Source: an uncultured Eubacteriales bacterium (GTDB lineage Bacteria; Bacillota; Clostridia; Oscillospirales; CAG-272). Taken from it: a stretch of 64,000 nucleotides of DNA. This document shows, in pieces, positions 25,370 through 61,152 of the stretch. The stretch is from assembly GCA_934432725.1 (NCBI GenBank), contig CAKRZE010000001.1, positions 207,031 through 271,030 on the forward strand, given 5' to 3'. Position 1 is the stretch's first letter. Each line of letters starts with the position of its first letter. The position numbers and the translations under genes are program-made. A model generated the notes under the pieces. That model was not told the origin of the DNA and did not search any database. It was given only the letters and a program-made list of their open reading frames with translations.

Positions 25370-25379
25370 CTTTTTTCCC

Positions 25380-26240: not shown

Positions 26241-26254
26241 CGGAGCTCCTTTAT

Positions 26255-27427: not shown

Positions 27428-28425
27428 TTTTCAAATCCGCTCTTTTCGGGCAGAAACTCCTTAAAGGCACCGCGCAGCCTTTCGCGGAGCTTCTCAAAAT
27501 TCACGCTCCGCTCGGGATCATTGATGCACAGCATATCGTGGCTCTGCTCCCGTATGATGCGGCACAGCCCGTCCACCGTGCTTTCATCGGCACAGGACAC
27601 GTAATTGTCCGTATTGAAGGGAGCAAACTGTCCGCTTGCCACCTGCCACCAGAGACACACCCATTGGTTCACATCATCGGCACTGCGGAAACGGTGAGCC
27701 GTTGTATGCGCCAAAAGCTCCGGCTCCGCGCGCCAGACCGCTTCAAATGTACTCTTGGTGTAAGCCGCAGGTGCGTGCAGGTTTTTAAAACCGGTAAAAT
27801 AATCGGGAAACAGCCGTTCAACCAGCCTTGTACGAAGGTTGTCCTGCCAGCGGTACGCACGGTTGACATATTTCCTGCCGTGTTTTTTTACCTGCTCGCG
27901 CTTGCAGAAATGCGCATTGATCACGCCCATATCATTCACCGCCGCATGCTGCCAGATGCCGATCTCTCCCACAAGCTCTATGGGGTGCTCCCCTCCGTAG
28001 GTACAGGGCAGACCATTCCTAAAAAAAGAGGTCGGAGGCGCGGGACGGAGCAGAAACGTGTCGTCATTAAAGTAAACAAAATGCTCCGCCAGCCCCGGAA
28101 TGCGGTGCAGATTCATCTCAATGGCGTGAGAACTGAAGGTGGGAAGCACCTCTGCCGGAAGAAACTCCGTGTGCTTCACATGATGAAGCTTCGGATGCTC
28201 CGTATTCAGAAACGAAGGAATATGTCCGCAGGTGACAAAATGAATCTTTCTCACCCACGGCGCAAAGTTCTCCACTGCGCGGAACCAGTACGGCATCAGC
28301 CCCCAATCCCGGAAGCGGTTGACGGAATTGCCGTCGTTTATCGTTTTGCTCTGGTATTTTGCCTTTTCCGCCTGCCAGACGGGATCGTTTCCGTCCACCC
28401 ACAGAACGACGAAATCAATGTCCAT
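27424..28425 (-). CDS. Stealth family hexose-1-phosphoryl transferase (CR1-CR3 present)
   Basis: CR1 is DIDFVVLWVDGNDP, CR2 is APWVRKIHFVTCGHIPSFL and CR3 is FSSHAIEMNLHRIPGLAEHFVYFNDDTFL. Confidence 0.8.
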   Translation of the reverse strand: MDIDFVVLWVDGNDPVWQAEKAKYQSKTINDGNSVNRFRDWGLMPYWFRAVENFAPWVRKIHFVTCGHIPSFLNTEHPKLHHVKHTEFLPAEVLPTFSSHAIEMNLHRIPGLAEHFVYFNDDTFLLRPAPPTSFFRNGLPCTYGGEHPIELVGEIGIWQHAAVNDMGVINAHFCKREQVKKHGRKYVNRAYRWQDNLRTRLVERLFPDYFTGFKNLHAPAAYTKSTFEAVWRAEPELLAHTTAHRFRSADDVNQWVCLWWQVASGQFAPFNTDNYVSCADESTVDGLCRIIREQSHDMLCINDPERSVNFEKLRERLRGAFKEFLPEKSGFEK

Positions 28426-28434
28426 ATGTACTCC

Positions 28435-29481
28435 TCAGGTGATTTTCTTGCCCACAACCGGGAGCTTGCGGATCAGCCATGTCAGAAGAAGGCTGATCAA
28501 ATATACAATAATCGTTAGCATCGGAACCATCACCAATGGTGACGCGCTAATAACGGTAATATTGGAAAGGTTCAGCATCTCAATGATCAGCGCGTGAACC
28601 AAATAAACTCCAAAGCCATGGATCGTTAAAAATTCCCATATTTTTTTTGCCAATGGGGAAAAGGAAAGCCGGGAGACCCTTTTAACAAAGAATGTGAATA
28701 TTGCCGCAGATTCAACTATTACATTTGGCATTAAGTATTTTGAGAACCACTCAGTATAAACGCCATTAAGCCGAGACTGCCACGTCGTAGCAAAACAGGA
28801 AAAAAACACACAAAGAATGCCGAGCACATACAGTATTCTCTCCAGCTTATCGGATACTTTATAGGTCACAAGATAGTAACCAAGCATATAATACCCAGTA
28901 AAACCCAATGTAAAGTGAAATGTCGCCTTATTAAATATCTCTGCTATTACAGCGCCAATATAGGGAAGGCTGATTCCATAGTTTGCAACAAACTCCATAA
29001 GGATAAAGAGAAGTAAAAAATACTGAAGCAGCACCTTGTTACTAGTGAATTGTTTCAAAAATGGAACTACCATATAGATCCCTACAAGCATAAATAAATA
29101 CCAAAACGGATATGGACCAACTAAGAATTGCGATATAATGCCTTTCCAGTTTAAGTTGTTGTGTCCGGTATAATAGTACCAAACTTGAAAAATCGCAGAC
29201 CAAATACAAAAACAGATCACAATATGCTTAATATATTTTTTATACATAAGCTTAATGGAAACATCTCTTTTAGGGTCCAGGAACAAGCATCCTGATATCA
29301 TAACAAATACAGGAACATCCCATGTTACTGCTGCCCTCAAACAGTTTAAAACGCTCCAATTGAAGCTATATATATCTATACTTTTAACGGGCCCTCCGCA
29401 TAAGTGCGTCATAATGACGGCAAGCGTAGAAATAAACCGCAATATGTCAAGCTCTGTCTCTCGTTTTTTCTGCTCCGTCAT
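28435..29481 (-). CDS. membrane O-acyltransferase (acyltransferase_3 family)
   Basis: 348 aa, ~10 TM helices. The N-terminal ELDILRFISTLAVIMTH motif is typical of acyltransferase 3 proteins. The gene is visibly more AT-rich than its neighbours. Confidence 0.75.
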   Translation of the reverse strand: MTEQKKRETELDILRFISTLAVIMTHLCGGPVKSIDIYSFNWSVLNCLRAAVTWDVPVFVMISGCLFLDPKRDVSIKLMYKKYIKHIVICFCIWSAIFQVWYYYTGHNNLNWKGIISQFLVGPYPFWYLFMLVGIYMVVPFLKQFTSNKVLLQYFLLLFILMEFVANYGISLPYIGAVIAEIFNKATFHFTLGFTGYYMLGYYLVTYKVSDKLERILYVLGILCVFFSCFATTWQSRLNGVYTEWFSKYLMPNVIVESAAIFTFFVKRVSRLSFSPLAKKIWEFLTIHGFGVYLVHALIIEMLNLSNITVISASPLVMVPMLTIIVYLISLLLTWLIRKLPVVGKKIT

Positions 29482-29574
29482 AGATCCTCCCTTTGATTTC
29501 CGTATTTTTTTACAATCGTGTTGGATATTGCTGTGCAGACGGGCTATCCGGCTCCGCAGCCGAGGTCGGATTTC

Positions 29575-30555
29575 TCAGACCGACTTCTCCACTTGCCGCC
29601 GGTACAGACCGCAGCTTTTCACAGCGATCGCCAGTCTGTGCCGCAGCTGCGTTTTCCGATTGCGAAGATAGATGCCAAGCGGGCTTCCCATCTCTATGGA
29701 AGCATATTTGCTTTGCTTATGCTCTGCGATAATCCTGCGGTTTTGGGGCAGCGGCGCATAATAGAGCTTTTGGCACAGCAGCATTTTATAAAGCATCCCG
29801 ACTTCCTTCCCGGAAACGCCGAGTGCCCCCAGACTCTCCTCAAACGGCAGCATATACTCCGCAAGATTCTGAATCCTTTGAAGCCGACGGTATGCCCGCT
29901 TTTCGTCCTCCCCCTGCCTATAGCGATAAATTACCTCCCGCAAGGAGTAAATCACCCCGCAAAACGGCATAAGCTCCAATACAAAGAGAAAATCCTCCAT
30001 GAGAATCATATCCCTCCGAAATCTCACGCCGGAGTCAAGGAGAATTTTTCGCCGGTACAGCTTATTCCAAACCGGTGTCAGCGCGTTGCAGTCATAAAAC
30101 TCCCGAAAGTTCTTTTTCACTTCCGAAAGCGTCAGCATTCCCTCATCGGGCGGCAGGAGTTTTTCCCTTTCATACAGCCTTCCTCGATGATAATAATCAA
30201 AACTCATTCCAAACAGCAGCATATCCGGTTTCTTTTCCGATGCAATTTCGGATGCGTGTTCCATTGTCCCGGCATCCACCGTGTCATCCGAATCCACAAA
30301 CCAGATGTACTCCCCCTGCGCTTCGTCAATTCCGCGGTTGCGCGCAGCGGAGACACCCGCATTTTTCTGATGGACGCATCGAAGCTTCGGATACTGAACG
30401 CACAGCGCATCGCACAGCTCCGCTGTGCCGTCCGCAGAGCCGTCATCGATGAGCAGAATTTCGTAGTCCGTCAGACCGCAGGCACGGATACTGCTTACCG
30501 TATTCTTTAGTGTTTTCACACAGTTATAGCACGGAATGATCACACTGAATCTCAT
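29575..30555 (-). CDS. glycosyltransferase family 2
   Basis: Trimmed to ATG 30555 (MRFSVIIPCYNC...YEILLIDDGSADGT, DSDD). Overlaps the upstream stop (ATGA). Confidence 0.85.
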   Translation of the reverse strand: MRFSVIIPCYNCVKTLKNTVSSIRACGLTDYEILLIDDGSADGTAELCDALCVQYPKLRCVHQKNAGVSAARNRGIDEAQGEYIWFVDSDDTVDAGTMEHASEIASEKKPDMLLFGMSFDYYHRGRLYEREKLLPPDEGMLTLSEVKKNFREFYDCNALTPVWNKLYRRKILLDSGVRFRRDMILMEDFLFVLELMPFCGVIYSLREVIYRYRQGEDEKRAYRRLQRIQNLAEYMLPFEESLGALGVSGKEVGMLYKMLLCQKLYYAPLPQNRRIIAEHKQSKYASIEMGSPLGIYLRNRKTQLRHRLAIAVKSCGLYRRQVEKSV

Positions 30556-31664
30556 TCGTCCCGGACCTCCCAGCAAAAGCGGTAATTCAGATAGTTATCG
30601 GCGGCATAGGATATTTTGACGCTGAGATTTGTTCTGTAATAATAAAAGCCGGATATCAGAACGGCACAGAGCATGGCAGCCGTTCGCTGCCGGGAGGTCA
30701 AGGTCAGGTGCCTGATATGCGCTCCCGGGAGGACCTCATCCGTCTCCGGATACAGCATCATAGGAAGATACAGGATAAAAAACTGGAAATAATAATCGGT
30801 CAGACGGGTAAATACGTTATCAAACCCGGAAAATATCTGCAAAACCGCGGCGATGATCATCAGATTCATCAACTTATTAAAGGATTTTCCCTCCATGCCC
30901 CGCAAAAGAACGCCGACTACGACAAGTGCCAGAATCATCACAAAGCGGAGTCCAAGTCTGCTTCCGGTCACAAAATCCGTCTCATCATAATAGAATCCGC
31001 TGATAAAGGATACGATCTGCCTCCGAAACAGGAATACAAAACCGGCGAAAACTGCATACAGAAGCAGCTTTCGCGTATTCAGACACGTTTTGGCTATCCA
31101 GCGGGCAGGCAGAAAAACCAGAGCCGGGGCATGGACGCATCCGGCAAGAAGCGTCAGAGCATAGAACCGTTTCGGCTTCTCCTCCATAATCCCGGTAAAG
31201 GCAAGCATCACAAGCGCCATTGCCAAAGCCTGCTTGATGGCGCTGAAGCCGAAAAGATAAAATCCGAAGCAGTTCCAGACAAGATAGCTCAGCCACGGAC
31301 GGGGAGAATAGCGGTAAATCAAAACCGCCACCGCAAGCTCTGTCACCACGGCAATAAAAATCAGAAAAATCTGGAAATTGCCGTCAGTCACCATAGAAAA
31401 CGCTTTCTGAAGCCACGAAAACAGAAAATTCCGCCCGCCGTGAAAAACCTCGCTGCTGAACCAGCCCTTATCCGCAATGGTGTAATAATCCCATGCATAT
31501 TTGCGCAAATCTCCGGTCAGATACATATAACGCCAGCCGCAGACAAAGGCATGGAGCGCAGCCATCAGAATCACATAGGTTTTTCGGCGCTTGTCCTTTT
31601 GCGGAAAAAGAAGCCCTCCCGCAAGAACCGCGGCAACCAAATAATAATAGACCTTAATGCCCAT
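30552..31664 (-). CDS. EpsG-family polytopic membrane protein (Wzy-like polymerase candidate)
   Basis: 370 aa, ~10 TM helices and no soluble domain. The sequence style matches EpsG/O-antigen polymerase-like proteins (WRYMYLTGDL..Y, AIKQALAMALV). Confidence 0.6.
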   Translation of the reverse strand: MGIKVYYYLVAAVLAGGLLFPQKDKRRKTYVILMAALHAFVCGWRYMYLTGDLRKYAWDYYTIADKGWFSSEVFHGGRNFLFSWLQKAFSMVTDGNFQIFLIFIAVVTELAVAVLIYRYSPRPWLSYLVWNCFGFYLFGFSAIKQALAMALVMLAFTGIMEEKPKRFYALTLLAGCVHAPALVFLPARWIAKTCLNTRKLLLYAVFAGFVFLFRRQIVSFISGFYYDETDFVTGSRLGLRFVMILALVVVGVLLRGMEGKSFNKLMNLMIIAAVLQIFSGFDNVFTRLTDYYFQFFILYLPMMLYPETDEVLPGAHIRHLTLTSRQRTAAMLCAVLISGFYYYRTNLSVKISYAADNYLNYRFCWEVRDE

Positions 31665-35962: not shown

Positions 35963-37078
35963 TCATAGCTCCATCAATCGGCATACTACTTGTTCAACTT
36001 CTCGGATATCATACTTCTTTACGGCATGCAAGCCATTCCGGGTTACAGTCCGGCATAACTGTATGTTTTTATAATACCGCTCAATTCCTTCCGCAAAGCC
36101 GCTTACATCGTCAAAATCATAGGAAAAACCCGTTATACCGTTTTTTACATAATCCGGAATTCCGCCAACATTGGATGTGAGCAGTGGTAATCCGCTCGCC
36201 ATTGCCTCCAATGCAGCGATTCCCAACCCCTCCCGCATAGACGGATGCGCGTACAGATCCGCACAGTGAAGAATCTCGATAACGTCCCGTCGGTATCCAA
36301 AAAACAACACACGATCCTGTATCCCTAACTGCCTTGCCGCAGAACGCAGCTGTTCCAATAACTCGCCGCGCCCGCAAATGCCATAATAGATATTCTTTTC
36401 CTCTATTTTCCCCAGCGCTCGAATCAAAACCTCATGGTTCTTTCGATGTTGCAGTTCTCCCACAGACACCATAAAAAACGCATCATCAGGAACGCCAAGC
36501 TCTGCACGCTTTTTTGCTCTGTCCACCGAACAGGCAGAAAATTTTTCCGTATCCAGCCCAATCCCGTTGATCCTCTCCACCCGCTTCGCGTGAAACTTCT
36601 TTGCTCTCTCATAATCCTCATTGTTGATGGTAACGATCATATCGCACAGGCGGGAGCAGTATTTCTCCACCGGATAGTACAGCAGCCAGTTCCGGAGCGG
36701 CGCTCCCTTGTAAAAGTGAAAGCCGTGCACCATATAGATGATCTTTGTCCCGCGTTTTCGCGCCTCACGCGCCGCAAGACGGGTCATAACCCCCATCACA
36801 GGCTCATTCGTCCAAATCACATCCCACGAGCTGCCGTCAATCATTTTTTTCAGGTCGCCATAGCCCTTGCTGTTCTTTGCCGAAAAGGGGCTGCGTACCA
36901 ATCGGACAACATGAATCGGCGCAATGCCGTCCAGCGCCTTGTGCAGATCCTCCAGCCGCCCACCGACATCAGAGCAGGCAAGCTCCACGGAAAAGCCGTG
37001 CCGGGACAGATATTTCACATGCGGCACCAGAAACTGAATTGCCATAAGATCCGTGCAGGTCAAAAGCAAATGCTTCAT
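35963..37078 (-). CDS. glycosyltransferase family 4
   Basis: 371 aa. PSMREGLGIAALEAMASGLPLLTSNVGGIPD (E-x7-E). Its start shares one base with the upstream stop. Confidence 0.8.
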   Translation of the reverse strand: MKHLLLTCTDLMAIQFLVPHVKYLSRHGFSVELACSDVGGRLEDLHKALDGIAPIHVVRLVRSPFSAKNSKGYGDLKKMIDGSSWDVIWTNEPVMGVMTRLAAREARKRGTKIIYMVHGFHFYKGAPLRNWLLYYPVEKYCSRLCDMIVTINNEDYERAKKFHAKRVERINGIGLDTEKFSACSVDRAKKRAELGVPDDAFFMVSVGELQHRKNHEVLIRALGKIEEKNIYYGICGRGELLEQLRSAARQLGIQDRVLFFGYRRDVIEILHCADLYAHPSMREGLGIAALEAMASGLPLLTSNVGGIPDYVKNGITGFSYDFDDVSGFAEGIERYYKNIQLCRTVTRNGLHAVKKYDIREVEQVVCRLMEL

Positions 37079-38034
37079 CAGAGCGCCTCCAGAATTTGTT
37101 TCGCGATGCCGTCAGCGTCCAAACCGAACTGCGCACGCAGGTATTTCTGATTGCCGACAACGGCACAGTACGTATCGTGCAGTCCGATGCGCTTCAGCCG
37201 CGCATGGATCGGAAGCTCCGCCAGAACCTCCGCCACTGCGCTGCCGAAGCCGCCGGAGAGGTTGTGCTCCTCCACGGTGACAATCAGATCAAACACCTTT
37301 GCACAGCGTGCAATCGTCTCACGGTCGATGGGCTTGACGGTCGGGAAGGTCCAGACAGCGGGATGCAGATCATGTGCTGCAAGAATCGTTTCCGCACCCA
37401 AAACTTCTTCAAAAACAGCGCCGGTAGAGAATATGGCAATGCGCTCGCCGTCATGAACCGGAAGCGCCTTCCCGATCTCAAAGCAGTCAATGCGGTCATG
37501 GATCCGCTTCTCCCCGCCGCGTCCGAGCCGGAGATAGCAGGTGCCGGGATAACCTGCAATGGCTTTTGTCGCCGCTTCTGCCTCCACCGGATCTCCGGGG
37601 CAAAGCACTGCCACATCCGGCAGCGCCCGCATCACGGCAATGTCCTCGGTTGCCTGATGGCTCATGCCGAGCGAGCCATAGACAAAGCCGCCGCCCACAC
37701 AGACGATTTTTACATTGGCACGGTGATATGCACAGTCGTTGCGAATCTGCTCCAGACAGCGCAGAGTGGGAAAGTTTCCGATGGAATAGGTGAAAACCGT
37801 CTTCCCCTCCAGCGCCATGCCTGCCGCCAGTGAGGTCATGTTCTGCTCTGCGATTCCGGCGTTGACGAACTGATCCGGCAGCTGCTCCCAAAAGGGCTTC
37901 AGCACACCGAAGCCGAGATCGCCGGTCACAAGCTCGATATCAGGATTTTCTTTTGCAAGCGCAATCAGCGTGCGGACAAAGGTATCTCTCATTGAACGGT
38001 CTCCTTTTGCCGCGCTTTCAGCAGTCTGCTGCAC
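37078..38034 (-). CDS. transketolase-family protein, C-terminal (pyrimidine-binding) subunit
   Basis: 318 aa. GIAEQNMTSLAAGMALEGKTVFTYSIGNF and the ...SHQATEDIAVMRALP... pattern of split transketolase B subunits. Confidence 0.85.
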   Translation of the reverse strand: MQQTAESAAKGDRSMRDTFVRTLIALAKENPDIELVTGDLGFGVLKPFWEQLPDQFVNAGIAEQNMTSLAAGMALEGKTVFTYSIGNFPTLRCLEQIRNDCAYHRANVKIVCVGGGFVYGSLGMSHQATEDIAVMRALPDVAVLCPGDPVEAEAATKAIAGYPGTCYLRLGRGGEKRIHDRIDCFEIGKALPVHDGERIAIFSTGAVFEEVLGAETILAAHDLHPAVWTFPTVKPIDRETIARCAKVFDLIVTVEEHNLSGGFGSAVAEVLAELPIHARLKRIGLHDTYCAVVGNQKYLRAQFGLDADGIAKQILEAL

Positions 38035-38969
38035 GGCTTCTGAATAAGTTGTGCGAGTTTATGAACCAGATATGCGTAAATCAGGATCAAACCTGTCACG
38101 ACAATAAAGTTAAGCGGGAACGCCAATGTACAGAACCGCGCGATGATCGGATACTGCCCGAGGTAAATTTCAAGTGAAATTGCGGCAACGAACTTCATCG
38201 GCTTATCCACAATCCCCGAACGGTTCTCAAAAAAGCCCCGCTTTTCCAGTTTCACAAAGAGTAAGCTGATGCAGCATACACTCAAAACGGTCAGAATCGG
38301 AAAAGCAAGCTGAAGCACACTCAATTCCGTATAACGAACAATCAGCTTTTTACCGGCAAAATATCCGGCAAAGGACAATACAAGTCCTATTACTTCCAAA
38401 AGCGTTATTTTCTTGCTGATCGTCTCATATCGCTCTCGGATGTATGCGCCGAGCAGCATTGACTCGAAAAACATAAAATAGCACCATTTCTCATCAATGC
38501 TGTCTATATGATAAAAGCTCTTGTCAAAAACAGTCAGATAAAGCACAAAAAGCAAAGCAAAAACTGCCACAATGATCCATCTGATATCTAAACGAAGCCG
38601 CCTCAGCAACCAAACAACAATGTAATATGCCACGTAAAGCAGCATAATCGCTCCGATAAAATGGTACCACGTTGGATAAAAGAGGCAGTGCACATATGCC
38701 ATAATACCATCCGCACGCCAGAAGCCTGTGAGCAGATTTACCGCAGCGACGATCCACAGGGCCGGATAGATGCGAATGATGCGCTTGGCATACCATCCAG
38801 GAAATGACTCCCGAATGTTGTACAGGCAAAAGCCCGATACGAAGAAATAGATGCAGTTTCCGAAGTGTCCTCCGAATGCCATAGCAGAAACGGGCCAGAT
38901 GTCCGCATAGTGCGAATTGGTAATCATCACAGCCGCGATCGCGCGCAGCCAGTAAACAAACTGGAACAC
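37989..38969 (-). CDS. membrane O-acyltransferase (acyltransferase_3 family)
   Basis: 326 aa polytopic membrane ORF (LRAIAAVMITNSH...). It is inserted between the two transketolase subunit genes and overlaps the downstream one by 46 nt. Confidence 0.7.
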   Translation of the reverse strand: MFQFVYWLRAIAAVMITNSHYADIWPVSAMAFGGHFGNCIYFFVSGFCLYNIRESFPGWYAKRIIRIYPALWIVAAVNLLTGFWRADGIMAYVHCLFYPTWYHFIGAIMLLYVAYYIVVWLLRRLRLDIRWIIVAVFALLFVLYLTVFDKSFYHIDSIDEKWCYFMFFESMLLGAYIRERYETISKKITLLEVIGLVLSFAGYFAGKKLIVRYTELSVLQLAFPILTVLSVCCISLLFVKLEKRGFFENRSGIVDKPMKFVAAISLEIYLGQYPIIARFCTLAFPLNFIVVTGLILIYAYLVHKLAQLIQKPCSRLLKARQKETVQ

Positions 38970-38984
38970 AACTTATCTCCTTAC

Positions 38985-39929
38985 TTACTGTATCTTTATA
39001 TAGGTCGGGTGCCAGCCGGCAGAGGTCGTGTGGTCATTTCCGATATCCGCCCCCGGCTCCGGTACGGCAGGCGAAGCAATGCCGTCCGGCGTATACGGGT
39101 CAACCGCACCGTCGGGTTTTGCGGCATGCAGCTCTGTCACGGCACCGTCATACTCCCATCCATCGTGCGGGAAGCGGTAATGCCAAAGAATATCGTTCTC
39201 CATGAAGGACACGCCCTTGCCCTTCACGGTGTCGGCAATGACGACCGTTGGCTTGTGTCCGGGATTTTTTGTATCGGCAAGCGCCGCGCGAAGCGCATCG
39301 TGGTCATGCCCGTCAAGCTCGGTCACATTCCAGCCGAACGCACGCCATTTTGCGCCGAAATCCTCCAGAGCCAGCGTTTTTTCGCAGGTATCAAGGCTCT
39401 GCATCCGATTGTGGTCCACAATGGCAATAAGGTTTTCCAGCCGGTACTGATTGGCGAACAGCGCCGCCTCCCAGACCGCCCCCTCATCGCACTCGCCATC
39501 GCCGAGCACCGCAAATACGCGATGATGCTTTCCGTCCTGCTTTGCAGCCAGCGCCATTCCCGCCGCAGCCGACAAGCCGTGCCCCAGAGAGCCGGTGGAA
39601 AAATCAACACCGGGAAGATGGTGTGAAACATGTCCGGACAGCCTGCTTCCGTTCTGATAATGCGTCCGGAGCTCGGCGGGATCGAAGAAACCGCTTTCGG
39701 CAAGCGCTGCATACACGGCGGCGCCGGCATGCCCCTTGCTCATGATGAAGCGGTCCCTTTCATCCCACTTCGGATTTCCCGGATCAAACCGCAAAATATC
39801 CGCATACAGCACGGCAATGATGTCGGCTGCGGAAAGAATCGCGCCGATATGGCTTCCGCCGGAAAGATGCGTCATTTCAATGCCGTGGCGGCGGATCAGC
39901 CAGGCAAGCTCTTTGCTTGTTTTTTTCAT
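38985..39929 (-). CDS. transketolase-family protein, N-terminal (ThDP-binding) subunit
   Basis: 314 aa. SGGSHIGAILS, SKGHAG and the ThDP motif LGDGECDEGAVWEAALFA...IVDHN. Confidence 0.85.
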   Translation of the reverse strand: MKKTSKELAWLIRRHGIEMTHLSGGSHIGAILSAADIIAVLYADILRFDPGNPKWDERDRFIMSKGHAGAAVYAALAESGFFDPAELRTHYQNGSRLSGHVSHHLPGVDFSTGSLGHGLSAAAGMALAAKQDGKHHRVFAVLGDGECDEGAVWEAALFANQYRLENLIAIVDHNRMQSLDTCEKTLALEDFGAKWRAFGWNVTELDGHDHDALRAALADTKNPGHKPTVVIADTVKGKGVSFMENDILWHYRFPHDGWEYDGAVTELHAAKPDGAVDPYTPDGIASPAVPEPGADIGNDHTTSAGWHPTYIKIQ

Positions 39930-40864
39930 CCCGACACCTCATTTAATTCCGAAAGCTCGTCCGCACTCAGCTGCCATCCCAGCGCTCCGGCGTTTGAGAT
40001 AAGCTGCCCAGGCCGCTTCACGCCGCAAATGACCGCCGAATCCGGCAAGGTATCCAGAATCCAGCGGACCGCACAGGCGGCAACGGTTTTTTCATGGTTT
40101 TCGGCTATTTTCGTAAGAACCTCCACGATGCGAAGATTCTGTTCCAGCTTTTTGCCGTGAAAATTCACATAAATCTCCCTGCTGCGGCGATCGTCCGTGC
40201 CGAAACCGATATTGTCCTTTGTATATTTCCCGGTGAGAATACCCTGACCGAGACTGCCCCATGTCATGGGCGTTGCATGAAGAACATCCTGCACGGCACG
40301 AAGATCCTTCTCGTTTTTGCGGCACGCGAGGGAATATTCATCCTGACAGCAGGCGAATTTTCCGGCATACGGAAGAAGCTCGCGCATATCCTCGCTGTGA
40401 ATGTTGGAAAGCCCGTAGTTCCGGATCTTACCGGCAGCTTTCAGCTCATCCAGCTTTCCGACCACCTCCGAAACCGGCGTCCTTCCATCGCGGTAGTGGA
40501 TAGTATAAATATCGATATAGTCCGTGTTCAGCCGTCTGAGACTGCCCTCCAACGCTTTCTCAATGTATTCCGGAGAATTGTCATATTCGGTTTTTCCCGC
40601 CCCCGCGCGCACACCGAATTTTGATTCGATCACGACCTCGCAGCGCCGTCCGCCAAGCCCCTTGGCAAGCGTCATTTCCGACTGCCCCAAACCGTATGTA
40701 TCGGCGGTATCAAAAAAATTCACGCCGCAGTCAAGCGCAGCATGCACAGCGGCAAGAAGCTCTCCTTCATCCACCCTGCCCCAGCCGTAGCCGCCCATGG
40801 GACAGCCGCCCATGCACAGCCTTGAAACGCGCAGATCCGTGTTTTGCAGCATAATATATTCCAT
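39926..40864 (-). CDS. aldo/keto reductase
   Basis: 312 aa. LCMGGCPMGG, FFDTADTYG and IDIYTIHYRD are typical AKR blocks. ATGA overlap with the downstream transketolase gene. Confidence 0.85.
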   Translation of the reverse strand: MEYIMLQNTDLRVSRLCMGGCPMGGYGWGRVDEGELLAAVHAALDCGVNFFDTADTYGLGQSEMTLAKGLGGRRCEVVIESKFGVRAGAGKTEYDNSPEYIEKALEGSLRRLNTDYIDIYTIHYRDGRTPVSEVVGKLDELKAAGKIRNYGLSNIHSEDMRELLPYAGKFACCQDEYSLACRKNEKDLRAVQDVLHATPMTWGSLGQGILTGKYTKDNIGFGTDDRRSREIYVNFHGKKLEQNLRIVEVLTKIAENHEKTVAACAVRWILDTLPDSAVICGVKRPGQLISNAGALGWQLSADELSELNEVSG

Positions 40865-40868: not shown

Positions 40869-41588
40869 TCACTCCCCGCAGGATTTTTTGAAAAGTACGC
40901 GCCACGCCTTTTTCAAAACGCAGCCGACCGTCTTTACAAACAGCTGAAAATCAGTGCGCAGGGATACCTCTCTGGCATAGCGGATCCTCAGCCGGTTCTT
41001 TTTTTGCAGCACATATTTTTCGTACATTTCATCAGCGTTTTCGGCGCCGACAATTTCGTCAAGACTGATAAATGCGATGGAGCTGAAATCCGTGATCCCC
41101 GGACGGACCTCAAGAATCAGCTTTTCCTCATTCTGATACGCATCGGTATATCGCAGAAGCTCCGGGCGCGGTCCGACAAAGCTCATGGTCCCGATCAGAA
41201 CATTGTACACCTGCGGAAGCTCATCCAGTTTCAGCTTTCTCAGGATTCTCCCCGTCCGCGTAATCCGTGGATCGTTCAGCGCGGTGGTTCCTCCGTAGCG
41301 GTCCGCGTCCTTCCGCATGGTCCGGAGCTTGAAGATCCGGAACGGCTTGCCGCGGTATCCGCCCCGCAGCGGCGTATAAAGGACGGGAAAGCCGTCCTCG
41401 GCGGCAATCACGATGCCGAGCAGCAAAACAACCGGCGTCACCGGAACCGCAAGCAAAAGCGCCAGAATAAAGTCTATTCCGCGTTTGATCCACCGATTGT
41501 AAATCCCATAGCAGCCGCACCGCTGCGTCGGGGAAACCGCCTCTGCGGAATGTTCTTTATGTACCTCATAATTCAGCTCTGTTTTCAC
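40869..41588 (-). CDS. undecaprenyl-phosphate sugar-1-phosphate transferase (small PglC/EpsL-type bacterial sugar transferase)
   Basis: ORF 40869-41843 trimmed to GTG 41588 (GGAG SD 8 nt upstream). KRGIDFILALLL TM hairpin, FKLRTM, DELPQ and SFVGPRPE motifs are present. The upstream 85 codons are R/G-rich filler. Confidence 0.8.
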   Translation of the reverse strand: MKTELNYEVHKEHSAEAVSPTQRCGCYGIYNRWIKRGIDFILALLLAVPVTPVVLLLGIVIAAEDGFPVLYTPLRGGYRGKPFRIFKLRTMRKDADRYGGTTALNDPRITRTGRILRKLKLDELPQVYNVLIGTMSFVGPRPELLRYTDAYQNEEKLILEVRPGITDFSSIAFISLDEIVGAENADEMYEKYVLQKKNRLRIRYAREVSLRTDFQLFVKTVGCVLKKAWRVLFKKSCGE

Positions 41589-41863
41589 ACGAATATCTCC
41601 ATTCCGCCGCCAAAGCGCCGGCACAATCAATGGATGAAGCTCTTCCGTATCCCTTCCGGAAAGCAAAATCTGCGAAGCTCTGTCTCCAAAGCAAACGCAG
41701 GCATACCCCCGCAGCCTTCCGAAAAAGCCGGCGAATCCATCACGCCGTTCTCCTCCGGCAAATAACCGATCCGCCCTGCGCGCAGGAATACAAAAATCCC
41801 CGGAAGCGCAAAAACCGTCAATTCTTAAAAATGCACAGTACACTCCATTTTCCCAATAAAAAA

Positions 41864-41892
41864 ATTATAACACCATTGCGCCTGAAAGGCAA
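41864..41892 (-). promoter_or_regulatory. candidate sigma-A promoter of the glycan operon
   Basis: Minus strand reads TTGCCT (41892-41887), a 17-nt spacer, then the extended -10 TGtTATAAT (41872-41864). It lies ~270 nt upstream of the first gene. Confidence 0.5.
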
Positions 41893-42301
41893 TACCAAAC
41901 CTTTAAAAAGAGGCGGTATTTTTTGTGATATTCCACTTCCCGGCAAACACTCTGCGCAGTATGCCCCAAAGCAGCACAGACTGTCTGCCGAAGCAGCCTC
42001 CGCCCCCCGAAAGCAGCAAAAAGCCTCCACCGCTCTCCCGGGTTTTCCTTCTGCATCTTGCTCCAGGGCTTTATAAAAGCATGCATGATCGGCGAAAGCA
42101 TCAAAAAACACCGCACCGCCGTATCGGCGAAGCGATGTAAGACAGCACTCTTTTCACAGCCGGCAGGCAATCCGGCTTTTGCCGGTTTCCCGCGTTCTGC
42201 GTTGTCAATATCTCATGAAGACTCCGGCCCCCTCGGTTTTATCATCCGCACGCGCCAAGGGGAAAACCGGGGATCCGGCTTCCCCATGTGATGGAGCGTT
42301 T

Positions 42302-42673
42302 TTACGGTTCATCGACAGTGACGGATCGAATCATGCTGCTGTTGTCCTCAAATACCACGCGGAGCTTTGCGGAAACAGCTTGCCCCTTATCGTTTTCCAT
42401 GACGCAATAGATACTGAACTCATTTTCCGAAATCTGCTCCATCCTTCCGAGCGCCTTCCGCTCCGGGCAGACCGAGACGATTTCTCCGTACCGTTCGGAA
42501 AACGCCCCCTGCTCCTTGACATACGCCTCTATCCGCTGGCACAAGCCTTCTGCCTTCATTTTTCGGGACCAATATCCGGTCAGGGAAAAGACAAGAATAT
42601 TCATCGCAGCAAACAGAGCAACCGTGCAAATAACCGTAATTCCGATTTTCCCCTTCCGACTCATACGCTTCAT
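42302..42673 (-). CDS. small N-terminally membrane-anchored protein (paralog of 58666-59052)
   Basis: Shares MNILVFSLTGYWS(R/K)KMKA.GLCQ, RMEQIS.NE and AKLRV.FEDN with the protein inside the RHS array. It has one TM helix. The start was chosen at ATG 42673 (AAGGAAGGG upstream). Confidence 0.6.
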   Translation of the reverse strand: MKRMSRKGKIGITVICTVALFAAMNILVFSLTGYWSRKMKAEGLCQRIEAYVKEQGAFSERYGEIVSVCPERKALGRMEQISENEFSIYCVMENDKGQAVSAKLRVVFEDNSSMIRSVTVDEP

Positions 42674-42872
42674 GCGCCATGCCCTTCCTTTCATACCGTC
42701 CATACCGCCCGGCTTCCGCAGGTGCGGAGCGAAAGCAGCAAAGGACCCCTCTCCGAATGTCCTGTCAACCCGCCGGCATACCCCGCCGTTTCAGAAATGC
42801 GCATTCTCTCTGCGCCCCCTTGCGTTTGGGGATATGCTGCCGCCGAGCACCTCCGGCAGCCGAAATCCGTAT

Positions 42873-43373
42873 TTACCGGATGCTCATACGGGTGCGTCCG
42901 TCATCATAATCGGTTTTTATCCGAATATTCGTTGCATGCAGCGCAGCAGCATTTTTGATAAATTGCAGCAAGAGCTGCTCATCTTTTGCATATATTTCAA
43001 AACAATCTCCGTCAGTAACAAGCACGGCAAACCGGCAGCTGCTTGCCAGAAAGTCGCGGTAATCCCTGATATCCTGCCGCGCATCTCCCCTGCGGTATGC
43101 CTGCAAATTAAGAAAAAACACAAAATAGGGTATGCACGCCTTCAATTTCTCAAAATAGGATGAATCCGTCTTGCCGCCAACAGCAGGCAGTGCGGCGGAA
43201 GTGTGTATTTCCTCCTCACTGATATAAAAATCATACCCGCAAAGCGGAATATTCGCAAAAATACCGCCAAGTACGTCCCCATACCCGATATCAGATAAAA
43301 ATTCTATTCCTCTCATAAAACGATCATTTTGCGTATGCAAAAGCTTCCTTCCCCGGGACAGGAGCGGCATCAC
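42873..43373 (-). CDS. hypothetical protein (immunity-like, no recognisable motif)
   Basis: 166-aa ORF in the same-strand run. The start is uncertain (GTG 43373, ATG 43370 or ATG 43316). Confidence 0.45.
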   Translation of the reverse strand: MMPLLSRGRKLLHTQNDRFMRGIEFLSDIGYGDVLGGIFANIPLCGYDFYISEEEIHTSAALPAVGGKTDSSYFEKLKACIPYFVFFLNLQAYRRGDARQDIRDYRDFLASSCRFAVLVTDGDCFEIYAKDEQLLLQFIKNAAALHATNIRIKTDYDDGRTRMSIR

Positions 43374-43466
43374 AGCACAGGCACGCGCTTTCGGACATCA
43401 GACACCGCCGCTCCTTCTCCACACATTCCTTTTTCTCCGTCAGCCAGCCGCAGCACGGCGCACCGC

Positions 43467-43994
43467 CTATGCCATAAGCCGCATGATCCGCCTCTCATCC
43501 TCCCCCTCAAAGGAAATCTGAGAAATGTCCTCTAAAGATACTGCCGATACTCCGTCCGCTTCCCCGTCGCAGGTAAATTGTCTGATCCGGCATTTTCCCT
43601 CATCTGCCGTCTCAACAAACCCGGTAATGTCATCATACCCGCTTTGGCAAAGCTCAAATGACACAAGGGTCCGGCGGTCTTTTGCAATCTTCAGCACGGA
43701 AAGCATTATATTTTCTCCGTCAATTTTTTCACAAAAATCCGGGAAAGACCCGTCCGAACACAGCTTTTCCATTCTCCTGCCGTATTTTCCGTCTGTCTCT
43801 ATGCGAAAAACACAGCCTGTATCCATGACAACAACTCCATCGTATGCTCCGTCGGGACTTGCAAGCTGCAATACGACCCAGTTTTCGTCCACCGCAAGCA
43901 CCTTACCGTAAATGAACCTTGACGGTTCCTGCTCATCTGTATAGATTCCCGCTTTTTTCCCACTTGCGCATAATTCTCTTAACAATCCGATCAT
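43467..43994 (-). CDS. hypothetical protein with two beta-rich half-domains
   Basis: Trimmed to ATG 43994 (MIGLLRE, SD AAAGGGAG 6 nt upstream). About 175 aa with no recognisable family motif. Confidence 0.55.
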   Translation of the reverse strand: MIGLLRELCASGKKAGIYTDEQEPSRFIYGKVLAVDENWVVLQLASPDGAYDGVVVMDTGCVFRIETDGKYGRRMEKLCSDGSFPDFCEKIDGENIMLSVLKIAKDRRTLVSFELCQSGYDDITGFVETADEGKCRIRQFTCDGEADGVSAVSLEDISQISFEGEDERRIMRLMA

Positions 43995-44058
43995 AACATG
44001 CTCCCTTTCTCTCTGCCGCCTGACGGAATAAACACCGCCGGGCAAATTGTCCGTTTAT

Positions 44059-44580
44059 CTACTGTTCCCGGACCTGCCGATCAAAAACAAGATGGTACGC
44101 CGTATTCCTTACATCCGCCGGACGGCGGCGCTCCGGATCAAAGCAAACCGAAAAATCTCCGCTGTCTGAATAACAGAATAGCAGCTCTGCAAAATGATTC
44201 GAAACCATCTCATCCAACCTGTGTTTTTGATAGTCACGATAAAACCGCTTGAAGGTCTCCCATTCCGAGACAGGATAAAATAACACTGTTTCAAGATAAT
44301 AATCGAAAACAGACGGGATGAAATGATAAATATCCTCTCCCGCTTTGATTCTGGCAACCGTCAGATACTCATTCAGCGCCTGTATCTCTCCGCGGCTTCG
44401 AAAGAACGCTGGAATTTCACTTTTAAGTTCTCTCTCCCGTTTTGCCGTCAGATTTACCCCGTCCGTGCGGTAAAAACCGAAAAACAATTCCTCTCCGGTC
44501 AAAAACGTCTTTAAAATCCGGTCCATGCTGCTCAAATAACCGCTTTGAAAACGAAAATTTTCAAATGTTATTACATGCAT
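44059..44580 (-). CDS. hypothetical protein
   Basis: ORF 44059-44757. The first 59 codons are R/G-rich, so it was trimmed to ATG 44580 (MHVITFENF). No recognisable motif. Confidence 0.45.
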   Translation of the reverse strand: MHVITFENFRFQSGYLSSMDRILKTFLTGEELFFGFYRTDGVNLTAKRERELKSEIPAFFRSRGEIQALNEYLTVARIKAGEDIYHFIPSVFDYYLETVLFYPVSEWETFKRFYRDYQKHRLDEMVSNHFAELLFCYSDSGDFSVCFDPERRRPADVRNTAYHLVFDRQVREQ

Positions 44581-44780
44581 CCCCGAAATCCCCGTATATT
44601 CATGCACGGCAAGCCGCCTCAACTCTGCCGCCTCCTTTCCCGCCCTCCAAAATACCCCGGAACCGTGTCGTCCTTTCCGGATCATCCGGCTGCGACCGGC
44701 AGAACGGAAAATAACATCTGTCGCCGCCTCGGTCTGTCCGCATGCCCTGCGCATCAAGCCGAAAGCGGCTTGGGCCTCCG

Positions 44781-45164
44781 TCAGGATACCGACTGCTTTC
44801 TTTCCGTTTCCTTTTCAATTTCAATGATCCGGATTGCCTTTTGCAAAAAACTTGCCTCCATAAGAATGAAAAGACACAACCCTAATATACCGTCCACAAT
44901 ATCCAAAACAATTCCATATATACGTAAGAAATCTCCTCTCACCACTCTCCATATTTCAAAGCCAAGCCAATCCGCCGTCATATATAAAACCAGACAAAAT
45001 AATGCACTGATCCAAAAACGGCATTTGAGCAAGCGGTTTGCGCTTTTGGGAATTTTAGAATAAATGATAATATTTTCAATTTCTTTGACATGGTCATAAT
45101 AACTGTTAGTTCTTATGTGGAATCGCTCGCCCAAGATATAAAAACACAAGTCCTTCAAGCTCAT
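44781..45164 (-). CDS. hypothetical small membrane protein (2 TM)
   Basis: Trimmed to ATG 45164 (MSLKDL, GGAGGAG SD 9 nt upstream). Hydrophobic segments WISALFCLVLYMTADWLGF and IVLDIVDGILGLCLFILM. The gene is AT-richer than its flanks. Confidence 0.55.
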   Translation of the reverse strand: MSLKDLCFYILGERFHIRTNSYYDHVKEIENIIIYSKIPKSANRLLKCRFWISALFCLVLYMTADWLGFEIWRVVRGDFLRIYGIVLDIVDGILGLCLFILMEASFLQKAIRIIEIEKETERKQSVS

Positions 45165-45448
45165 TTTCAAAATCTCCTCCGATGTCAACCGATCCGGAAT
45201 GCTTGCAGACTCTCACGTATCCGCAAACCGCCGGCGTCCGTATGGACCCGGTCATCCCCATTCTGCTTTTCGCTGAGGAAATACGGTCCGTTTACCGTCA
45301 ATCCGCGCCCGCCCGCAGATCAATCCCGCAAGAAACGCCTCAAGAACCGGCAGAAGAACCTCATGCCTGTCTGCTTTCCGTGCCATATGCCGCCAAGCCT
45401 ATCATACTCCGTCAAAGGCTCCGTGCCGCCTCTCTCCTTTTCAGACCT

Positions 45449-46102
45449 TCACTTCCGATTCATCTCAAGGCGCTTCATTTCTTCAAACGAAATCCGCTGT
45501 CCGCACTCCGAGCATCGAAAAAAGCATATCCTGAATTCCATGTCCCCGTCCGCATATGCATCACCGATTTCAAAATCATAGCTTCCGGCTTCCGGCGAAT
45601 CGGAATTTACACTCACGCTGTCATATGCCACTTCCATTTGTTGTCCGCACACGGGGCAAGCGTGCTTTTTCCAATAAACATAAACCGGCGATGCTCCGTT
45701 ATAGATATATTTTACCGCAGTCGGCTGATCCGGTCCTGTTCCCTCCGCCTTCCCACAGAAGGTGAGAGAAAGAAGGAGCAGCACCGCCGCAACGAGAACA
45801 CAGCATCCCAGGATTCTCCGAAGCAGCGACGGTTTGTAATGTTCAATCTTTTTCATTTCGTCAACCGTATAGCTTTTCCCGCAATGACCGCATTGAAACT
45901 CCGTTCGGACAACCCTGACATTTCCGATCATACATCCGTCATCGAATGAAAAATCATAGTTTTTTGCCTCATCCGAGCCTGAATTGACAATTTTTGAAGC
46001 CCGGGTCACTTCCAGTTCCCTGCCGCACAAAGGGCAATGATGCTTCCTGTATTTCACATAAAACGGACTTTCCCGAACCCACATAATATTATGAACGCCC
46101 AT
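45449..46102 (-). CDS. membrane protein with duplicated double-CxxC (zinc-ribbon-like) module
   Basis: Module 1 is HHCPLCGRELEV...FQCGHCGKSYTVDEMKKIE. Module 2 is HACPVCGQQMEV...FRCSECGQRISFEEMKRLE. They are separated by the TM helix ILGCCVLVAAVLLLLSL. Confidence 0.6.
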   Translation of the reverse strand: MGVHNIMWVRESPFYVKYRKHHCPLCGRELEVTRASKIVNSGSDEAKNYDFSFDDGCMIGNVRVVRTEFQCGHCGKSYTVDEMKKIEHYKPSLLRRILGCCVLVAAVLLLLSLTFCGKAEGTGPDQPTAVKYIYNGASPVYVYWKKHACPVCGQQMEVAYDSVSVNSDSPEAGSYDFEIGDAYADGDMEFRICFFRCSECGQRISFEEMKRLEMNRK

Positions 46103-46271
46103 TCTCCCATACCCCCGTTTATTTCTTCACAGTCAAAGCTGTCATGTAAAATGAACCACCGCCGAAGCCGTCGTCGGTCTGACCGACCCACGTCAGCCCA
46201 GCCGTTTATCCATCCGCAGGCGTTTCCGTGTCTTTAGAGTCCCTCCCGGATGCAAACCCCGAAGTCTCCGG

Positions 46272-46799
46272 TCAATCCGCCAGTTTAAGATACAATTGCG
46301 CACACGCCAATGCCGCATCCACCGCTATAGGGGCTGACGGATACTCAAATACCGACTTATACCGCAGATACACCTTCGGAAGGTTATGCAGTGCCTGAAG
46401 CAAATACCAAATCTTCTGCTGCTTTTTCCTGCTCAATGACTGCACCGTGTGCTCCAGCTGTTCGGCAATCGCCTGCATTGTCCGATTTATTTCCAAATAA
46501 GGCGAAAGATCACAAAGCGACGACAAAGCGAAATTCTCTTCTTTCCACTGATTGAATGACGCTTCGCTGATGCGGAATTGTTCCGTCCTTTCAAGAATTT
46601 TTTTGACAGTTTCATGATCACGCGCCGTTATATGATCGCAGGATATTGCCCGGACCATTTCGCTCATCAGATCAACAGAATCGGCAAGCTCTGCAATATA
46701 GCTTTTTGCCCACCACAGCTTGCCCGGGTTGCATCTTCCCTTTTCATAAACGGTCAGCCGATACAAAGCTTCTCCAAAAAACGATTGCTTACAAACCAT
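46272..46799 (-). CDS. hypothetical helical protein, weakly similar to the immunity candidate at 57027-57485
   Basis: ATG 46799 with an AAAGGGA SD. It shares the pattern (I/L)EH.(V/L)..L...K..(Q/E)....(L/F)..A(L/I)H(N/E)LP with ORF 57027-57485. Confidence 0.55.
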   Translation of the reverse strand: MVCKQSFFGEALYRLTVYEKGRCNPGKLWWAKSYIAELADSVDLMSEMVRAISCDHITARDHETVKKILERTEQFRISEASFNQWKEENFALSSLCDLSPYLEINRTMQAIAEQLEHTVQSLSRKKQQKIWYLLQALHNLPKVYLRYKSVFEYPSAPIAVDAALACAQLYLKLAD

Positions 46800-47076
46800 C
46801 ACAGTCCCTTTCGGCTTTTTTCAGGAATCGATTGTCAGGGCGCAGAAAACCGCATTCGGAGCCGAGCACGTCCGACTGCACACCCGGTCTGTCATATATA
46901 CCGATATATCCGATCTTTTCGCTTTCATTATACATCATTTATGCCAATCGGTCAAGGTTTTTTCCAGATAATTCAACTCCGGTCATGCACCTCTGCGCAT
47001 CCGGCGAGCGCTTCCGCTCCGTCCGGGTACGCGTCGGTCTCTTTTCCCCATGCCTTTGTCCCAGCTGCGGCAAACC

Positions 47077-47124
47077 GAAAAGCCGGTTGATACAACCTCC
47101 GTTGGCTGCACCGACCGGCTTTTC
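47077..47124 (-). terminator. possible terminator after the ABC exporter genes
   Basis: 11-bp stem GAAAAGCCGGT/ACCGGCTTTTC with a 26-nt loop. The minus strand continues CTTTTCGGTTTG. Confidence 0.35.
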
Positions 47125-47178
47125 CCGCCTCTTTTTTATATACATTTTCCGCCGATGCAGGGGCATTGGCGCCTCATT

Positions 47179-56117: not shown

Positions 56118-56341
56118 AAAAAGTCCTCCGTTTTTATCGAATCTCAATGTCTCCGTTTGCAGCTTCCACGGTCAGCCTGCCGTACAGGCTGCAAAGCGGA
56201 CGATACGGCGTCTGCGATTTGCTCTTTCCTGCGGAGCAACACCTCCCAAAGAACCTGACGTAAGCTTCAGCGCCCGTGCAAAGGTTTTTCCCTTTCCAAG
56301 CCGCCTCCGGCGCGTTCTGTCAAGTCCGGACCATTCCAGCC

Positions 56342-56933: not shown

Positions 56934-57026
56934 GCTTTGCCGAGAGCAGGCAGGTTTGCCTGCTCTCGGGCTACTTGATGAAGGAATAACAATGGAGAAA
57001 AACAGGTTTTACGTTAGTGTGGAGGG
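56934..57026 (-). repeat. conserved cassette-junction element, copy A (13-bp-stem hairpin)
   Basis: ~95 bp shared with 58538-58632 and 62134-62230. Hairpin cCGAGAGCAGGCA-ggtt-TGCCTGCTCTCGg at 56940-56969. Confidence 0.8.
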
Positions 57027-57485: not shown

Positions 57486-57487
57486 CT

Positions 57488-58632: not shown

Positions 58633-58665
58633 ACTTCTTTCTTCATTTTCCAAGCAAATTAGTTT

Positions 58666-60727: not shown

Positions 60728-60728
60728 T

Positions 60729-61148: not shown

Positions 61149-61152
61149 CTAC

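Follow-up and report, generated by a model that had tools for sequence, protein, structure and literature searches.

Two kinds of enzyme dependent on thiamine diphosphate (ThDP) have an established role in adding carbon branches to keto-sugars, those like YerE and those of the E1 alpha/beta type (PMC12247030). YerE adds a two-carbon branch to CDP-3,6-dideoxy-4-ketohexose in yersiniose biosynthesis (PMC12247030). The branch ketones made by E1-type enzymes are reduced in avilamycin and trioxacarcin, and transaminated in kibdelomycin (PMC12247030). For miharamycin and amipurimycin, split-gene transketolases have been proposed to transfer a hydroxyacetyl group to a keto-sugar, after an oxidoreductase step (PMC12247030). 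Thirteen putative sugar-branching transketolases of the split-gene type have been reported, all from Streptomycetes and none characterised (Krug et al. 2024, as summarised in PMC12247030). Here we describe a split transketolase in a cell-surface glycan operon of an uncultured Eubacteriales bacterium (contig CAKRZE010000001.1, positions 207,031 to 271,030; this stretch of 64,000 nucleotides is called the window below). Its two halves, TK-N and TK-C (TKN and TKC in gene orders), are encoded together with an aldo/keto reductase (AKR), a phosphoglycosyl transferase (PGT) and a membrane acyltransferase of the AT3 family. An original prediction, made from the letters of the window, held that the transketolase pair, the AKR and the acyltransferase could build a branched-chain or chain-extended sugar by ketol transfer, reduction and O-acylation, and that no transketolase-type enzyme is known to have an established role of this kind. 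The latter statement needs a qualification, as such a role had already been proposed for miharamycin and amipurimycin (PMC12247030).

With moderate confidence, we take the region to be the 5' initiating-sugar cassette of a surface glycan operon, whose enzymes would transfer a hydroxyacetyl group to a keto-sugar, reduce a carbonyl and, optionally, O-acylate the product. Four comparative lines argue for the core of the original prediction: a cassette that recurs across phyla, a remodelled acceptor pocket, sister clades that lie in nucleoside diphosphate (NDP)-4-keto-sugar pathways, and retention of the His residues that contact the donor C1-OH. The O-acylation step appears to be accessory. The predicted gene content was borne out: the two halves, the AKR and the acyltransferase all lie on the minus strand with the domains that had been named (Pfam), and the AKR stop and TK-N start do overlap in an ATGA, at 39926-39929.

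Relatives of TK-C were sought in 185,579 species genomes, one per species (GTDB), and at least 537 were found. Synteny was counted in the best 80 of these loci, at 66-89% identity, and the genes upstream in the 60 of those 80 that have at least 3.2 kb of upstream DNA. TK-N and TK-C are directly adjacent in all 80. A PGT belongs to the cassette in 59 of the 60 loci, and so does a reductase; the sole exception is L060, whose operon begins with TKN-TKC. The conserved unit is PGT, carbonyl reductase, TK-N and TK-C, without an acyltransferase wedged between the halves. The cassette is widespread at the head of glycan operons in gut and soil bacteria, and its carriers include Oscillospiraceae, Acutalibacteraceae, Lachnospiraceae, Ruminococcus flavefaciens 007c, Bacteroides, Prevotella, Muribaculaceae, Victivallales, Gastranaerophilales, Atribacteria, Bacillus fengqiuensis, Paenibacillus cremeus, Sporotomaculum and Pelotomaculum. 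The patchy spread across phyla at 66-75% identity suggests horizontal transfer. The closest metagenomic relatives (L001-L005) share the order of the window, PGT-AKR-TKN-AT3-TKC-GT4, where GT4 is a glycosyltransferase of that family; slightly more distant ones (L006-L009) have PglF-like dehydratase-PGT-AKR-AT3-TKN-TKC-GT4. A gene for GalU (UTP-glucose-1-phosphate uridylyltransferase) is found in three of the 80 loci, and its presence hints at a UDP-hexose origin of the modified sugar. The three (L058, L064 and L079, from Bacillus fengqiuensis, Pelotomaculum and Paenibacillus cremeus) have a short-chain dehydrogenase/reductase (SDR) as their reductase. In L058 and L079 the GalU gene is directly 5' of the SDR gene; in L064 it lies further downstream.

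The PGT is best matched among solved structures by PglC (2.4e-29). It fits the PglC-like class in having the short Bac_transf catalytic domain without the N-terminal membrane domain of the WbaP type. The natural donor of PglC derives from the product of PglF. The open reading frame (ORF) extends to 41843, but translation probably begins at a GTG near 41588. The protein would then have about 239 residues, homologues having 215-260. Since the cassette is strictly coupled to this transferase, the modified sugar is suggested to be the initiating residue of the glycan.

Both transketolase halves have their best solved relatives in the split transketolase of Carboxydothermus hydrogenoformans, TK-N in its N chain (6YAK, 5e-68) and TK-C in 6YAJ (2e-52; the C-halves share 35% identity). 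Human transketolase comes next for both, and its numbering is used here. Alignment to the solved relatives shows the ThDP/Mg2+ site of TK-N (GDGECDEG...HN), as had been read from the sequence. TK-N keeps His37, His77, His110 and His258 as well as the GDG..N metal site, and the donor His residues and metal site are present in the aligned columns of 71 of 71 clade sequences and in all sister-clade sequences examined. Transketolase_N scores 158 bits against 36 bits for E1_dh (Pfam). By these comparisons TK-N is a canonical transketolase N-half, with a donor site built for a hydroxylated two-carbon unit. Its homologues run to thousands, the top 120 being at 85-99% identity and from gut metagenomes.

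The acceptor side is altered. In the transketolases of yeast, E. coli and human, a Ser and a His help to bind the substrate phosphate, and an Asp hydrogen-bonds the 2-OH of the acceptor aldose. In the E. coli enzyme, engineered replacements of the same three residues (S385, H461 and D469) admit non-phosphorylated, non-hydroxylated or bulky acceptors. In TK-C, Ser345 is replaced by Gly, His416 by Gly and Asp424 by Leu in 76 of 76 clade sequences, and none of the 76 departs from the whole signature, which reads R318, G(S345), I(F389), G(H416), L(D424), H, R474. Retained are Arg318, the cofactor-activating Glu366 (AEQNM, 76 of 76), a His at the position of yeast His481, and Arg474. Compared with canonical transketolase (EC 2.2.1.1), the pair has the ThDP motif, the activating Glu and the PP-domain His residues, but TK-C does not have the Ser, His and Asp contacts of the pocket. 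The pocket string is RGIGSLHR in the window clade versus RSFHEDHR in C. hydrogenoformans and RAFHEDHR in a catabolic pair from Enterococcus gilvus, so that the canonical split transketolases keep Ser/Ala-His-Asp. A wider search with TK-C among 1.84 billion cluster representatives gave a best 150 at 37-57% identity. Nearly all of these are without His416 and Asp424, and have Ile/Gly at Phe389/His416; position 424 is mostly Leu, also Gln, Ala or His, while Arg318 is kept and position 474 is Arg or Lys. The wider subfamily with an altered pocket thus comprises at least 150 clusters at 50% identity.

The C. hydrogenoformans protein is a genuine split transketolase, and split transketolases are found in many Clostridia, which would suit a housekeeping enzyme of the pentose-phosphate pathway that lies in a glycan operon by chance. 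We regard this as highly improbable. The three canonical substrate-binding residues are invariantly replaced, and both halves score below the cut-off of the NCBIfam transketolase model (NF004559; 280 and 173.5 bits, cut-off 488). The pair is found with a PGT and a reductase within glycan loci in 59 of 60 species, its distribution across phyla at 66-75% identity is patchy, and it is also carried by Bacillus and Paenibacillus, both of which possess a full-length tkt. Because the acceptor pocket is invariantly remodelled and synteny with the PGT and the reductase is kept, a housekeeping transketolase is for practical purposes ruled out.

The nearest relatives outside the clade came from a translated search of annotated plasmids, the two best matches being at about 45% identity. 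In Methylovirgula pHY1 the order is rfbF, rfbG, extended SDR, rfbH, TK-N, TK-C, the rfb genes being annotated as glucose-1-phosphate cytidylyltransferase (rfbF), CDP-glucose 4,6-dehydratase (rfbG) and 3-dehydrase (rfbH). This gene set makes CDP-3,6-dideoxy-4-ketohexose, the acceptor of YerE. In Paenibacillus cellulosilyticus (L090, plasmid NZ_CP054609.1) the order is rfbF, rfbG, a methyltransferase, a 635-residue protein, TK-C and a TylF-type methyltransferase. The 635-residue protein (L090, 7097-9004), annotated as an SDR, is an extended SDR of the NDP-sugar type fused to TK-N, and the fusion links a reductase and the transketolase-like enzyme as functional partners. Plasmid matches below 40% identity (Rhizobium, Phaeobacter, Paraburkholderia and Enterococcus) were set aside as catabolic, being in sugar or polyol operons and having other signatures, and served as outgroups. 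A plasmid match from Streptomyces has no annotation. A profile built from 16 outgroup representatives gave five more contexts, all in glycan loci (L097-L101). Two of them (L098 and L099) have a nucleotidyltransferase, a gene of the 4,6-dehydratase family and a DegT-family protein of RfbH-like length (442-445 residues) followed by TKN-TKC; the Pfam families and gene sizes suggest the same CDP-dideoxyhexose route. In the other three (L097, L100 and L101) the order is TKN-TKC-DegT aminotransferase-methyltransferase, with a PglF-like or other gene of the 4,6-dehydratase family nearby; L097 and L101 additionally have a Bac_transf gene upstream. The Actinoplanes wps-2 exopolysaccharide (EPS) cluster, whose methyltransferase-TKN-TKC-aminotransferase order is a passing annotation given no interpretation, resembles this last layout. 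The sister clades, at about 45-52% identity, have a signature of the same type (SIGAAHK, SIGGQHK, RSIGALHK and similar). A neighbour-joining tree groups them on one branch with the window clade and places the canonical and the catabolic split transketolases outside it. Within the window clade itself, a PglF/CapD-like UDP-GlcNAc 4,6-dehydratase is encoded in 13 of the 80 loci, and also in L006 and L007. It is just 5' of the cassette in most of the 13, and directly abuts the PGT in eight of them.

The third constant partner is the reductase. In the AKR of the window, the positions of the Asp/Tyr/Lys/His tetrad match those of 3N2T and 1PZ1 (DTADTYG, SK, IHY; read by eye from the alignment). Its relatives include MtmW, a side-chain ketoreductase, and this kinship suits a role for the AKR in reducing a side-chain ketone. 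Homologues at 56-79% identity are found in 53 of the 60 loci. A classical SDR of 252 residues is found in eight, and both reductases in two; the order in the SDR variant is SDR-PGT-TKN-TKC, with the SDR 5' of the PGT. Because the AKR is replaced in some loci by an unrelated SDR, carbonyl oxidoreduction appears to be integral to the cassette, and a swap between non-homologous enzymes is good evidence for such a step within the pathway. Two loci (L022 and L077) have a doubled cassette, PGT-AKR-SDR-PGT-TKN-TKC, with both types of reductase and both types of PGT. This could be a recombination intermediate of the two variants, or could belong to a pathway that needs both oxidation and reduction.

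Alternatively, the AKR or SDR could work in reverse, oxidising the initiating sugar at one of its hydroxyls and so creating the keto or aldehyde acceptor, in which case the chemistry would be the same and the hydroxyacetyl branch would stay unreduced. This would account for the absence of a dehydratase to supply the ketone from most loci, the window included, and L022 and L077 could then have one enzyme to oxidise and another to reduce. It also has a precedent in the miharamycin proposal, where the oxidoreductase makes the keto function before the split transketolase acts (PMC12247030). We nevertheless think it unlikely. The AKR persists in loci that have a PglF-like dehydratase, and in sister clades the neighbour of the transketolase genes is an aminotransferase, which needs a ketone that is present only after branching. 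Moreover, AKRs of this kind are normally reductive and NADPH-dependent.

In our preferred reading, branching comes before reduction. The comparisons above show the gene content, its conservation, the pocket signature and the gene neighbourhoods; from these we infer the chemistry, the donor, acceptor and regiochemistry, which way the oxidoreductase works and how the steps are ordered relative to the PGT. With hydroxypyruvate or a ketose phosphate as ketol donor, the alpha2beta2 ThDP enzyme would load a carbanion of dihydroxyethyl-ThDP. The acceptor would be the carbonyl of a keto-sugar linked to a nucleotide or to undecaprenyl diphosphate, rather than an aldose phosphate, the most plausible being a sugar of the UDP-4-keto-6-deoxy-HexNAc (N-acetylhexosamine) type. 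The widened and less polar pocket would admit such a linked keto-sugar, and the two arginines could hold its phosphate or diphosphate. The product would be a tertiary alcohol that carries a hydroxyacetyl branch; from a C6 aldehyde, by contrast, a sugar with its chain extended by two carbons would result. The AKR (or SDR) would then reduce the ketone of the added side chain, giving a 1,2-dihydroxyethyl group; in sister clades, the DegT enzyme would transaminate the branch ketone instead. The PGT would put the modified sugar on undecaprenyl phosphate as the first residue, from which the downstream glycosyltransferases would extend, and the AT3 protein, where present, would O-acylate the modified sugar.

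Several points weigh against this scheme. The main weakness is the source of the keto-sugar. No 4,6-dehydratase or other obvious enzyme that would form a keto-sugar is encoded among the scanned ORFs of the window, and only 13 of the 80 related loci have a 4,6-dehydratase nearby. Either a dehydratase is encoded elsewhere or the AKR or SDR creates the carbonyl; the oxidoreductase could thus form the keto group and not act on the product. The acceptors of canonical transketolases are aldehydes and not ketones. An ordinary sugar phosphate would equally be compatible with the two arginines that are kept, Arg318 and Arg474. The case for the chemistry is built on sequence comparison, for the clade as a whole as well as for its sister clades, and the neighbour-joining tree was built quickly from distances and has no support values.

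Some of the same observations would also suit a transketolase-like enzyme and a reductase whose substrates are free sugar phosphates from central metabolism, and which supply the glycan pathway with an unusual precursor such as a heptulose or octulose phosphate, or a polyol. The original prediction was correct in stating that the operon has no nucleotidyltransferase, dehydratase or epimerase, and none of the three was found in any scanned ORF of the window either. Both phosphate-binding arginines are kept, and small carbonyls are the main substrates of the group that includes the AKR. However, the changes of Asp424 to Leu and of His416 and Ser345 to Gly remove the contacts to a linear aldose phosphate. 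The product would need activation, but no kinase, mutase or nucleotidyltransferase is co-conserved for it, GalU being present in only three of the 80 loci. The constant partner is a PGT, which needs an NDP-sugar, and the sister clades are in NDP-keto-sugar pathways, one of them with its TK-N fused to an NDP-sugar SDR. A route through free sugar phosphates is therefore quite improbable in our estimate, and branching of a linked keto-sugar remains the reading that we prefer.

The acyltransferase, which the original prediction emphasised, has a lesser role. It does lie between the halves in the window, and in L001-L005, but as a general arrangement this does not hold: the order tktN-acyltransferase-tktC, whose co-occurrence in other glycan loci was to be checked, is absent from all 80 species-representative loci. 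Of 75 related loci, about 20, or roughly a quarter, encode an AT3 protein (in one case a hexapeptide acetyltransferase) within the cassette, usually between the AKR and TK-N and once after TK-C, and its sequence is poorly conserved. Because its position varies, its sequence is poorly conserved and it is never between the halves in the species loci, the wedge is a local rearrangement of an accessory gene, and its position is incidental. The emphasis on the wedged acyltransferase was thus misplaced. We also considered an AT3 protein supplied with an acyl donor derived from the transketolase, and rejected it, the protein being missing from about three quarters of the loci and variable in position and sequence.

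The ORF drawn for TK-C in the original prediction, 37078-38034, has the predicted domains but starts 14 codons too early. A start at Met15 (37992) is almost certain, because all homologues start there, an AAAGGAG ribosome-binding site lies upstream, and a second ATGA overlap, with the AT3 stop, results. The genes of the cassette and the GT4 gene that follows it are collected in Table 1.

Table 1. Genes of the cassette and the adjoining glycosyltransferase gene, by position in the window
Feature	Position	Strand	Family match and remarks
PGT, small monotopic polyprenyl-phosphate type, PglC-like	40869..41588	-	Pfam Bac_transf 1.2e-47; first cassette gene
AKR, AKR11/13-like, carbonyl reductase of the cassette	39926..40864	-	Pfam Aldo_ket_red 6.5e-61, full length
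TK-N, ThDP/Mg-binding (PP-domain) subunit	38985..39929	-	Pfam Transketolase_N 3e-46; start overlaps AKR stop (ATGA)
AT3-family integral-membrane acyltransferase	37989..38969	-	Pfam Acyl_transf_3 1.8e-21, residues 6-299
TK-C, pyrimidine-binding and C-terminal subunit	37078..37992	-	Pfam Transket_pyr and Transketolase_C
GT4 glycosyltransferase	35963..37078	-	Pfam Glycos_transf_1 and Glyco_transf_4; start overlaps TK-C stop by one base

The operon is long, running on the minus strand from about 41.8 kb down to about 22.1 kb of the window. Its 5' part consists, in order, of the small Bac_transf PGT, the AKR, TK-N, the AT3 protein and TK-C. After TK-C come GT4, GT2, GT2, GT4 and GT4 (GT2 being likewise a glycosyltransferase family), an EpsG-type polymerase, a further GT2 and a second AT3 protein. 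The 3' part encodes a Stealth protein, a GT4, an ABC-2 permease with a Wzt-like ATPase, a polysaccharide pyruvyl transferase and a metallophosphoesterase. To call the split transketolase and the AKR the only soluble sugar-modifying enzymes of the operon was too strong, since it also encodes the pyruvyl transferase and the Stealth phosphotransferase, as well as the metallophosphoesterase. The GT4 gene next to TK-C is a candidate for the enzyme that adds the second sugar; a homologue at 39-80% identity lies directly 3' of TK-C in roughly one third of the related loci, in both variants of the cassette.

Other features of the window may be mentioned briefly. The stretch of this operon at 22107-31664 combines an EpsG-type (Wzy-like) polymerase with an ABC-2/Wzt-type exporter pair, and the Stealth hexose-1-phosphoryl transferase, the pyruvyl transferase and the metallophosphoesterase are encoded there too. 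Either two routes of assembly and export are mixed here, or one transcription unit serves two glycans. No Wzx flippase was found in the operon, the sole candidate being a MatE protein with a weak Polysacc_synt_3 match at 13957-15345. In the roughly 5 kb that lie 5' of the PGT (41844-47178) all ORFs are short, and their family matches are weak (DUF2691, zinc-ribbon) or absent; neither a Wzz/tyrosine-kinase pair nor a CapD-like gene, usual before the PGT in EPS loci of Firmicutes, was found in this interval. In the relatives L001-L003, the DNA upstream of the PGT likewise has just small unannotated ORFs. At 56000-64000 the GC content falls from about 0.52 to 0.39-0.44 and the ORFs are mostly without a Pfam match, the sole one being to an RHS-repeat fragment (61501-62121); the segment may be foreign or mobile. 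A protein of 1347 residues with FG-GAP repeats and a long C-terminal region with weak apolipoprotein-like coiled-coil matches (3950-7993) is probably a large surface protein, unrelated to the cassette.

The proteins of this clade may constitute, as we propose tentatively, a large and unrecognised subfamily of two-subunit transketolases that provides a third route to C-branched sugars, in surface glycans of many phyla, linked to priming and giving a branched or extended sugar at the reducing end. If so, the pocket of the subfamily would be widened by the Gly/Gly pair and hydrophobic at the Asp position, and a branched (hydroxyacetyl or dihydroxyethyl) or two-carbon-extended sugar, undescribed for these gut bacteria, would be at the reducing end of their capsule or EPS. 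The clade with the signature is common in surface-glycan loci and is coupled to the first committed step of polymer assembly. The hypothesis bears on an open question in ThDP enzymology as well as on the glycan chemistry of abundant gut bacteria. Were the chemistry confirmed, common gut commensals would be expected to have a new monosaccharide in their capsules, and glycobiologists would gain a sequence signature by which to find such sugars. It would also provide biocatalysis with a natural transketolase scaffold for ketone or bulky acceptors, leading to functionalised tertiary alcohols. The hypothesis is testable in cultured carriers, namely R. flavefaciens 007c, Bacillus fengqiuensis, Paenibacillus cremeus and Pelotomaculum propionicicum. 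In open-access full text, we found no paper on a transketolase-type cassette in capsule, EPS or O-antigen loci, the sole pertinent items being the annotation in the Actinoplanes EPS cluster and the review PMC12247030; matches in Anabaena and C. butyricum were set aside as ordinary transketolases.

The best solved homologue of the window pair is the split transketolase of C. hydrogenoformans (6YAK/6YAJ; PMC7661550), which has the same alpha2beta2 arrangement and the same ThDP and metal sites. However, it keeps the Ser, His and Asp of the pocket, which the window clade does not. In chemistry, the proposed scheme resembles that of YerE/YerF, for yersiniose A in Yersinia pseudotuberculosis, and of YerE-like enzymes such as ErwE, namely C-C coupling on an NDP-4-keto-sugar, after which the carbonyl of the branch is reduced; rfbF, rfbG and rfbH, the genes that make the YerE substrate, are also present in loci of the sister clades. 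However, YerE is of the decarboxylase superfamily, similar to acetolactate synthase, and forms an acetyl branch from pyruvate, while the window enzyme has a transketolase fold and two subunits by Pfam. The one-chain TPP_enzyme_N/M/C architecture is absent from it, apart from a sub-threshold TPP_enzyme_C match of 19.7 bits (Pfam). Enzymes of the alpha-KADH2 type (AlmDI/DII of aldgamycin, KbDH of kibdelomycin, AviB1/B2 of avilamycin) are also two-subunit ThDP enzymes, of the wider transketolase/E1 fold, that place a two-carbon branch on a deoxy-keto-sugar. Reduction or transamination of their branch ketone parallels the AKR, SDR and DegT neighbours of the window-type loci. In contrast to the window N-half, whose best match is Transketolase_N, they belong to the E1_dh family and use pyruvate.

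Miharamycin and amipurimycin offer a close likeness: in both cases there is a two-gene transketolase with an oxidoreductase, and a keto-sugar is only proposed to receive the hydroxyacetyl group. The window has the hallmark of that class, a split transketolase beside an oxidoreductase, with the AKR and TK-N genes overlapping in ATGA and TK-C following. Compared by description only, the miharamycin type belongs to secondary-metabolite clusters, whereas the window cassette belongs to cell-surface glycan operons and is locked to a PGT. The former is reported only from Streptomycetes; the latter is present in Clostridia, Bacteroidota, Bacilli and other phyla, where hundreds of species have it. The window cassette is therefore best classed as chemistry already proposed elsewhere, what is new being its much larger setting, its sequence signature and its fixed partnership with a priming transferase.

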